Of a stretch of DNA of 64,000 nucleotides, positions 44,904-46,190 are shown piece by piece. The notes below the pieces were generated by a model. It searched no databases and had not been told where the DNA came from. It saw only the letters and a list, made by a program, of their open reading frames with translations. Made by a program: the position numbers and the translations under genes. The first letter of the stretch is position 1. The number at the start of each line of letters is the position of its first letter. The DNA comes from Escherichia coli (lineage in GTDB: Bacteria > Pseudomonadota > Gammaproteobacteria > Enterobacterales > Enterobacteriaceae), in the NCBI RefSeq assembly GCF_003334315.1, contig NZ_QOWR01000001.1; one strand, written 5' to 3'.

Positions 44904-46190
44904 TTACTTCAGATCGGCCTGTACCTGACGCAGCGGTTTCGCCCACGGGTTTTTGGCCTGGACATCTGCTGGCAATGTAGATACCGCTTTTTTCGCCTCT
45001 TCTTTCGAAGCGTACACGCCAGAAACCAGGACATACCACGGCTGACCATTACGCGTCGTTTCATAGACAACGTAGTTTTTCAGATTCTCTTTCTTCGCCC
45101 AACCGTTCAGGTTGTCGTAGTTAGAGGAACTGCTCAGCTGCAGAGTGTAATGGCTGGACGGTGCCGATTTCAACGAACCAACATTACCTGCGGTCTTCGC
45201 CCCAGCAGCGGGTGTTGCTGTGGTTTGCGCCGGGGATGCCGTCTGTACTGGAGCCGTAGTCGCCGTCTCTTTTGGTGCTGGCGTAGAAGTCGCAGCCGGT
45301 GCCTTCGTGCTCGCCACAGGGGCAGCTGGTTCAGTACGCTTCGGCGTCTGTGCTACCGGCTTCGGCTCCGTTTTCACGGTTGCTTGCGATTTTTTCGGTT
45401 CAATCACTGCCTGCTGGCGAGCTGGACGCGTAGTGGCCGGACGTTCAGCGGTTTGCGTTTTCGCCGTTTCACGCGATGCATTGCCATTGCGAACAGGCGC
45501 GACAGTCGCGGGTTCGGTCGGCAATGTGGAATTGACCGCCACATTGTTCAACTGTTGCTGATTTTGTGGCTGGGTCAGCGCATTGTTCAGGTCACCCTGC
45601 ACTTCAACACGTTGTTGACCATCCGTTGCCGCCGGGGTTTGCCCTTGAGTCGGCGTAGAAGAGATCGGTGGCAGAGAAACATCCTGCTGAGTATTTTCCG
45701 CAGACGTGGTTCCCGGCGCTGGCTGCACCCCATTCGCCTGATCGGTCGCATTGCCTGCAAGATCAATACTCTTCTCACCAGACGCGGTTTGATCGCTGGA
45801 AGAGGTCGAGGGGGCTTTTAGCGCAGAACCGATACCGATGATCAACAGCAGTAGAACCAGAATGCCGACGCCCATCATCATATACTGACGAGAAGCGGGT
45901 TTACTGGCTGCTTTTTTGCGCTTACGCGGACGACGCTCTACGCGCTCTTCATCCACGGTTTCATCTTCGGATTCGTCAATTTCTTCTTCGATTTCCGGTT
46001 CCTCATTGCGCTCTTTTTGCGCACGAGTCGGACGGCGATCGTCAGTGTCATCAAGTTCAATATCATCAAAATTGATCTGCGGTTCGCCACGTTCAGTACG
46101 CTCAGAACGTTCAGAAGATTGACGAGAACGACCAGTACGACGATCGCTGGGATCGGGTTTCAGCTCGTCTTCTGGTTTGAATTCATCCAT
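44904..46190 (-). CDS. damX: Cell-division protein DamX (C-terminal SPOR domain)
   Basis: 428-aa ORF: charged N-terminus, one TM segment, long Pro/Ala/Thr/Gln-rich linker. Confidence 0.85.

Follow-up and report, generated by a model that had tools for sequence, protein, structure and literature searches.

Positions 44904-46190 of the 64-kb window (the whole stretch of E. coli DNA that was analysed) carry, on the minus strand, an ORF of 428 codons, which spans exactly this interval in the ORF listing of the window and ends in a TAA stop at 44904-44906. Based on the NCBIfam search, its product is a member of the equivalog family NF008153, "cell division protein DamX", with a score of 846.1 bits against a cut-off of 256, and the alignment runs end to end (residues 1-428 against profile positions 1-424 of 424). 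A copy of the gene was found in each of 5426 complete E. coli genomes, annotated as damX among the matches listed, and the damX DNA of the window is 100% identical to that of E. coli E308. In the window, damX is flanked by ORFs for dam, rpe, aroB and aroK that share its strand, and the gene order aroK-aroB-damX-dam-rpe-gph-trpS is the same in annotated genomes. The locus is thus the ordinary E. coli cell-division gene damX, and both the gene and its architecture are already known. The first-pass annotation, made from the letters alone, had given it this name, which is confirmed by NF008153 and synteny as well as by the SPOR family (PF05036) and PDB 2LFV matches described below.

The protein corresponds to DamX of K-12 (b3388; formerly urf74.3), a septal-ring SPOR protein; it is the same gene, with the same length of 428 aa, the same operon context and the same domain order. 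The DamX of the window shares 99% identity with the main E. coli cluster and has Ser268 where other alleles have Pro. At the nucleotide level, the allele of the window differs from most E. coli genomes by about 3% in the linker described below, nearly all of it silent, and the difference is allelic only.

The N-terminal cytoplasmic region (residues 1-100; 45891-46190, minus strand) was delimited by composition, conservation and AlphaFold2. It is rich in acidic as well as basic residues (E 21%, R 16%, D 13%), its first 30 or so residues are conserved among relatives, and in the AlphaFold2 model, which was built from a 35-sequence alignment, residues 1-100 have pLDDT values of 41-59 and lack secondary structure. 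Residues 101-121 (45828-45890, minus strand) are modelled as a helix with a pLDDT of about 79-86; they form the sole strongly hydrophobic stretch of DamX and are invariant in relatives. DamX is therefore predicted to be bitopic, with a single transmembrane helix lying between the cytoplasmic N-terminus and a periplasmic linker.

The C-terminal SPOR domain (residues 337-428; 44907-45182, minus strand) is supported by three kinds of evidence. Pfam PF05036 matches residues 345-418 (E = 3.7e-14), the solved SPOR structure PDB 2LFV, "Protein damX", matches residues 335-428 (E = 1e-55), and AlphaFold2 models the SPOR fold over residues 337-428 confidently, with pLDDT above 90. According to published work, the SPOR domain of DamX binds denuded glycan strands of septal peptidoglycan, and the K-12 protein is septally localised. 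When the SPOR-coding part was compared with that of other E. coli alleles, differences were found at 0-1 nucleotide sites and were silent only.

The same bitopic layout, namely a short cytoplasmic part, one transmembrane helix, an unstructured periplasmic tether and, at the C-terminus, a SPOR domain, is shared by the other SPOR proteins of the E. coli inner membrane, FtsN and DedD. Disorder of the tether has been demonstrated by NMR for DedD, and among the E. coli inner-membrane SPOR proteins DamX has the longest linker and also a larger cytoplasmic region (PMC7642682). DamX differs from FtsN in being without the essential "E" domain.

Between the membrane helix and the SPOR domain lies the linker, at about residues 122-336. 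Ala (17%), Thr (16%), Pro (12%) and Gln (10%) together account for 55% of residues 126-340, and over residues 125-333 AlphaFold2 models no secondary structure and gives pLDDT values that are mostly under 50 (block means 33-52). The description of the central part of damX as a Pro/Ala/Thr/Gln-rich linker therefore holds, and the segment is predicted to be disordered and periplasmic, where it would serve as a flexible tether. It is compositionally biased, yet it is not built of repeats, contrary to the first reading of the sequence, which had described it as composed of degenerate repeats. Tandem Repeats Finder found no array within the linker, a repeat search of its DNA returned only two-copy chance matches of 12-22 nt and no repeat family, and in self-alignment the linker protein reached a best score of 50 compared with 56 ± 9 in shuffles (P = 0.79). 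An Rfam search of 43000-48500 at a permissive threshold gave no match.

Two long open frames lie on the plus strand opposite damX, as had been stated earlier, and both are present in the ORF listing. ORF1 (45150-45821, plus strand) has an ATG start and 223 aa and lies in the codon-registered antisense frame, whereas ORF2 (45220-45561, plus strand) has a GTG start and 113 aa and is open only in the allele lineage of the window. Their products had both been called Arg/Cys/Gly-rich. This is loosely true of ORF1 (R 25%, L 13%, G 9%, C 7%), and the 25% Arg and 7% Cys are what is expected from reverse-complemented Ala, Thr, Pro and Ser codons; the ORF2 product is instead Ala/Val/Gly-rich (A 19%, V 19%, G 14%, R 5%).

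The openness of the ORF1 frame can be traced to codon choice. A registered antisense codon reads as a sense codon reverse-complemented, and only sense TTA, CTA and TCA can therefore give rise to stops in this frame. There is no TCA among the 36 Ser codons of damX and no TTA, and the gene has two stop-forming codons in all, CTA at residues 113 and 124. As a result of this lack of TCA and TTA, together with the few Leu residues in the stretch, the registered frame is stop-free for 305 codons (44904-45818), and this run takes in both the linker and the SPOR-coding part. When synonymous codons were resampled with the DamX protein fixed, the corresponding run was 166 ± 56 codons, so that the observed length falls in the upper 3% (P = 0.027, upper tail). 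For the ORF2 frame, the open run of 136 codons is of typical length (resampled 124 ± 34, P = 0.32).

Long "shadow" ORFs in the registered antisense frame of bacterial genes are a known class of artefact. Across the genes of the window, TTA, CTA and TCA make up 10%, 3% and 10% of their codon families; the rarity of these codons in E. coli makes long open registered antisense frames common, and runs of at least 200 codons occur in 10 of the 49 long genes of the window, the longest being 528 codons. Compared with other cases of this kind, damX shows nothing distinctive and lies in the upper part of the distribution. The linker composition, to which both open frames had been ascribed, does act in the proposed direction. 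Relative to average window proteins, it lowers the expected antisense stop density 1.5-1.7-fold: per codon, the registered frame goes from 0.020 to 0.012 and the ORF2 frame from 0.033 to 0.022. As an explanation it is incomplete, in that it leaves out codon choice (no TCA or TTA), the extension of the run across the SPOR-coding part and the general property of the frame.

The length of ORF2 depends on a single position. At 45415-45417 (plus strand), opposite damX codon 258, the window has TGG, while all five other same-length E. coli alleles that were mapped have TGA and most outgroups carry the stop-forming base. In all six other E. coli alleles, the longest open run of the ORF2 frame is 88-92 codons. 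ORF2 is thus long because of one silent third-position SNP in damX codon 258 in this lineage.

It has to be considered whether ORF1 could be a young, Escherichia-restricted antisense gene overlapping damX and encoding an Arg-rich protein. Its frame is unusually long in the resampling, all seven E. coli alleles have ORF1 intact, as does C. amalonaticus, and Escherichia and Citrobacter retain its ATG start at 45150. However, the P value of 0.027 and the retention in seven E. coli alleles are not significant evidence of selection, because 49 genes were tested and within-species divergence is only about 3%. Outside E. coli, ORF1 is interrupted by internal stops in five of seven relatives, namely E. 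albertii (codon 214), the P0022 relative (82% identity), S. enterica, S. bongori and C. braakii.

The pattern of substitution also belongs to damX and not to ORF1. Over residues 124-347 and 13 orthologous alleles, the simple NG86 counting method gave dN/dS values of 0.05-0.15 in the damX frame compared with 1.0-7.9 in the registered antisense frame of ORF1 (13 comparisons). Substitutions concentrate on damX third positions, with 34, 26 and 128 at positions 1, 2 and 3 in the comparison with S. enterica and 1-4, 1-3 and 12-24 within E. coli. It should be noted that the intergeneric linker alignment is imperfect, whereas the comparisons within E. coli are gap-free except for the GF4-3 allele, which has the 12-nt insertion described below. 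When codon usage was scored by log-likelihood, with the other 48 genes of the window as training set, only the damX frame came out positive (+0.20 bits per codon for damX, -0.22 for ORF1 and -0.37 for ORF2), and ORF1 lies below even the mean of the antisense frames of the 49 long window genes (-0.08).

Signals for expression point the same way. The Shine-Dalgarno duplex energy is -2.4 kcal/mol for ORF1 and -4.7 kcal/mol for ORF2, compared with a median of -5.5 at gene starts and -1.9 at random positions, which places ORF1 near the random median. A consensus scan, which is weak evidence, found no promoter-like site on the plus strand upstream of either start. Neither product matched a family in NCBIfam, and the exact ORF1 product is absent from a collection of 15 billion predicted proteins. 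The ORF2 product does occur there, but every gene call for it is unnamed and comes from a contig no longer than 2 kb, on which the real gene is truncated.

In the papers searched on antisense or overlapping translation at damX, no report of ORF1 or ORF2 translation was found, and the relevant match was PIRT-seq (PMC12350097). In this genome-wide translation-reporter screen of translation fusions, done in one strain under one growth condition, the 215 candidate CDSs include no damX entry (Goodall et al., NAR 2025, PMC12350097), so the screen gives no translation evidence for the antisense frames, which is the kind of observation that the earlier reading had named as able to overturn it. The same work describes a nested candidate, "in-damX", which turned up in a single selection replicate and was chosen for tagging (PMC12350097). 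Its tagging primer is an exact match to 45941-45990 (minus strand) of the window, and a TAG follows directly downstream; from this position and this stop, "in-damX" is a +1-frame ORF on the sense strand at 45938-46090 (minus strand), in the acidic N-terminal region. As a sense-strand, +1-frame ORF outside the linker, it was rejected as support for the antisense frames.

Taken together, the first-pass judgement that the antisense frames are not genes is borne out by dN/dS, codon usage, the third-position substitutions, the weak Shine-Dalgarno pairing and the interrupted orthologues, and there is next to no probability that ORF1 is a real overlapping gene. We estimate at about 0.95 the probability of the joint reading in which 44904-46190 is the known gene damX, its linker is a tether not made of repeats, and both plus-strand ORFs are non-coding by-products of damX.

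The linker had also been proposed as a hotspot of length variation between strains, and this expectation did not hold within E. coli. A 117-nt query over the Ala/Pro/Thr-rich residues 288-326 found at least 80% of its length in every one of the 5426 complete genomes, and no large deletion in these residues was found among them. The only recurrent linker length polymorphism found was an insertion of 12 nt. In the window, the 12-nt unit ACGCCAGCACCA (Thr-Pro-Ala-Pro) occurs once, at 45273-45284 (minus strand, placed by alignment), and the inserted unit ACGCCAGCCGCA (TPAA), a near-copy of ACGCCAGCACCA, lies just upstream of it, between 45285 and 45284. Based on a junction-specific query, the insertion is present in exactly 40 of the 5426 genomes (0.7%), including strain HS; this agrees with the 40 genomes in which the 117-nt query matched at 80-90% identity. 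The ACGCCAGCCGCA insertion was also found in E. marmotae and E. albertii. In 39 of 40 rank-spaced genomes damX is 1287 bp long, and a few strains instead have small indels in the N-terminal region. The suggested comparison with other DamX proteins thus gives a near-constant linker length within E. coli and a variable one at the level of the family, where representatives at 50% identity that carry the DamX N-terminal motif have linkers of 58-268 aa. Linker length varies between genera, not between strains.

These data bear on the possibility that the linker is a repeat-driven locus of the contingency type, in which slippage would frequently change its length between strains. What could be taken to favour it is the presence of the 12-nt unit in one or two near-tandem copies and the rare in-frame deletions of 13-39 aa, which map mostly to residues 288-326. 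In the 15-billion-protein collection, however, each deletion variant (389-421 aa) is represented once or twice, whereas the 428-aa cluster has 6081 members, and some of the variants may be assembly errors. Apart from the single 12-nt unit, tandem and dispersed repeats are absent, and neither the complete retention of the 288-326 segment (at least 80% in every genome) nor the low frequency of the insertion allele fits frequent slippage. Moreover, although identity across Escherichia, Salmonella and Citrobacter is about 75%, the linkers there are all 216-224 aa long. With boundaries placed by MAFFT, the junctions of the rare deletions have 0-8 nt of microhomology, including 8 nt at 60-81 (in the cytoplasmic region) and 6 nt at 137-162; microhomology was set aside as a deletion mechanism because the signal is too weak. 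By eye, some deletion junctions show imperfect short direct repeats, for example TGAACAATG, which is offset by one base from where the boundary of the 201-213 deletion was placed. The contingency-type explanation is largely refuted, and we regard it as very improbable.

What does vary in the linker is its silent sites. Seven E. coli alleles, compared in pairs, differ on average by 3.2% over the linker, as against 0.86% over the N-terminal part and 0.40% over the SPOR part. At four-fold sites, the difference is 0.108 in the linker versus 0.021 in the rest of damX (about 5-fold), and 35 of 136 linker sites segregate versus 6 of 103 elsewhere (P = 4.5e-5). Genomes at least 99% identical to the window number 245 of 5426 for the linker, 4441 for the N-terminal part and 5345 for the SPOR part, and the haplotype pattern along damX is mosaic. 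All of these observations would be consistent with a locally elevated mutation rate or with old recombining haplotypes, rather than with ordinary chromosomal variation. On the other hand, in two comparisons over the whole 64 kb, the linker divergence (3.6% and 4.0%) ranks only at percentiles 94 and 87 among 645-nt windows, which reach 7-10% elsewhere. The flanks are unusually uniform (0.55% at the aroB 3' end and 0% at the dam 5' end), and, given those percentiles, the contrast owes as much to them as to any peculiarity of the linker. A special local process of this kind is rather unlikely. As an exceptional diversity hotspot the linker was rejected; its excess is real relative to the rest of damX, but at the 87th-94th percentile over 64 kb of two genomes it is a local contrast and not a discovery.

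At the protein level, the linker sequence is under purifying selection, as follows from the dN/dS of 0.05-0.15, and conservation is distributed unevenly along it. The N-terminal half (residues 126-236; 45483-45815, minus strand), with pLDDT below 50, contains conserved short motifs: IDL at 142-144, PPISSTPTQ at 174-182, a 12-residue motif at 194-205 and STLPTxPATV at 221-230. These motifs are invariant across Escherichia, Salmonella and Citrobacter, as are the linker blocks 169-184, 194-206, 220-236 and 253-269. They are still recognisable in 26 relatives at 35-63% identity; in these distant relatives P224 is invariant, and L223, T225, P227, A228 and T229 are at least 90% conserved. The C-terminal half (residues 237-335; 45186-45482, minus strand) is an Ala/Thr/Pro/Lys-rich variable spacer. 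It has a mean identity of 0.14 and no conserved positions in the distant relatives, it shows the lowest sequence entropy of the linker (2.8-3.1 bits), and most of the rare linker indels fall within it. We found no description of the linker motifs in the literature examined.

Based on these patterns in the sequence, we tentatively suggest that the linker may not be a passive spacer, a proposal to which we give somewhat less than an even chance. The motifs of the N-terminal half would then act as interaction sites and could dock periplasmic partners such as PBP1B or FtsQ, while the length of the variable half would perhaps be held by stabilising selection, matched to the distance between the inner membrane and the peptidoglycan. 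The idea of a maintained length derives from the range of 216-224 aa across Escherichia, Salmonella and Citrobacter and from the single length seen in 99.3% of E. coli genomes.

The results for damX have a meaning for annotation as well as for the study of SPOR proteins. The gene is a clean example against the annotation of long antisense ORFs over genes that are poor in Leu and avoid TCA and TTA. It also corrects the expectation that low-complexity linkers vary in length between strains, as here the length is nearly fixed and the silent sites vary. Finally, the conserved linker motifs could guide mutagenesis in work on SPOR proteins.

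Silent variation in damX, which encodes a cell division protein (44904-46190, minus strand), was concentrated in the Ala/Thr/Pro/Gln-rich linker between the transmembrane helix and the SPOR domain. Among E. coli alleles, the diversity at four-fold sites was 0.108 in the linker (45171-45815) versus 0.021 in the rest of the gene (44904-45170 and 45816-46190), an approximately 5-fold difference, with 35 of 136 and 6 of 103 four-fold sites segregating, respectively. The linker haplotypes of these alleles were mosaic, and the linker divergence fell into the 87th-94th percentile within the whole 64-kb window.

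The N-terminal half of the linker (residues 126-236; 45483-45815, minus strand) contains short conserved motifs, including STLPTxPATV and two 12-residue motifs, which are retained in relatives at 35-63% identity. The motif at residues 221-233 is invariant at the protein level, yet nine of its codons are variable. It should be noted that this segment belongs to the part of DamX otherwise supposed to be unstructured. No published description of the linker motifs was found in the literature searched.

An internal GTG at damX codon 79 (45954-45956, minus strand) is the start of 350-aa products (MDEERVERR...) grouped in protein cluster P0021. This cluster comprises 890 NCBI protein records and, therefore, many genome annotations use the shorter DamX start, giving a product without the conserved N-terminal 78 residues. 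The cytoplasmic region (residues 1-100; 45891-46190, minus strand) was predicted to lack secondary structure, with pLDDT values of 41-59, whereas it was termed "likely folded" in published work (PMC7642682). In distant relatives, its conservation is limited to the first ~30 residues. Small indels of 3 or 9 nt were present in this region in a few E. coli strains, and residues 60-81 are deleted in rare DamX variants, the deletion being flanked by AAGAGCGC microhomologies. In addition, in one of 5426 complete E. coli genomes, the damX copy was on a plasmid-labelled record, probably through an assembly error in naming the replicon.

A candidate nested ORF, in-damX (45938-46090, minus strand), lies in the +1 frame of the sense strand within the acidic N-terminal part of damX. 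It was tagged in PIRT-seq, a genome-wide translation-reporter screen, having been seen beforehand in one replicate (PMC12350097). Its GTG start would give 50 aa, and the frame is open for 73 codons, from about 46159. Of the 14 alleles examined, only that of E. coli GF4-3, which has a 12-nt linker insertion, interrupts the frame; the other 13 keep it open, as would be expected anyway of a sequence rich in GAA, GAT and CGT. A putative sigma-70-like site (TTGAAA, 18 nt spacer, TACACT; 45144-45173, minus strand) was found on the sense strand by the linker/SPOR boundary, with ~350 nt separating it from the dam start downstream. According to published work, damX harbours alternative promoters for dam (PMC4981707).

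Elsewhere in the window, pairwise comparisons with two E. coli genomes revealed segments divergent from strain A22 (about 33800-34300 and 38800-39300) and from O55:H7 DEC5D (27600-28500 and 59300-59700). About 5-8 kb of the window was unaligned to each genome, and the gene tables showed strain differences near frl/yhfS-Z and chiA/gsp. The four segments differed from one or other genome by 6-10%, against a median of 1.2-2.3%, which suggests recombined or variable stretches.
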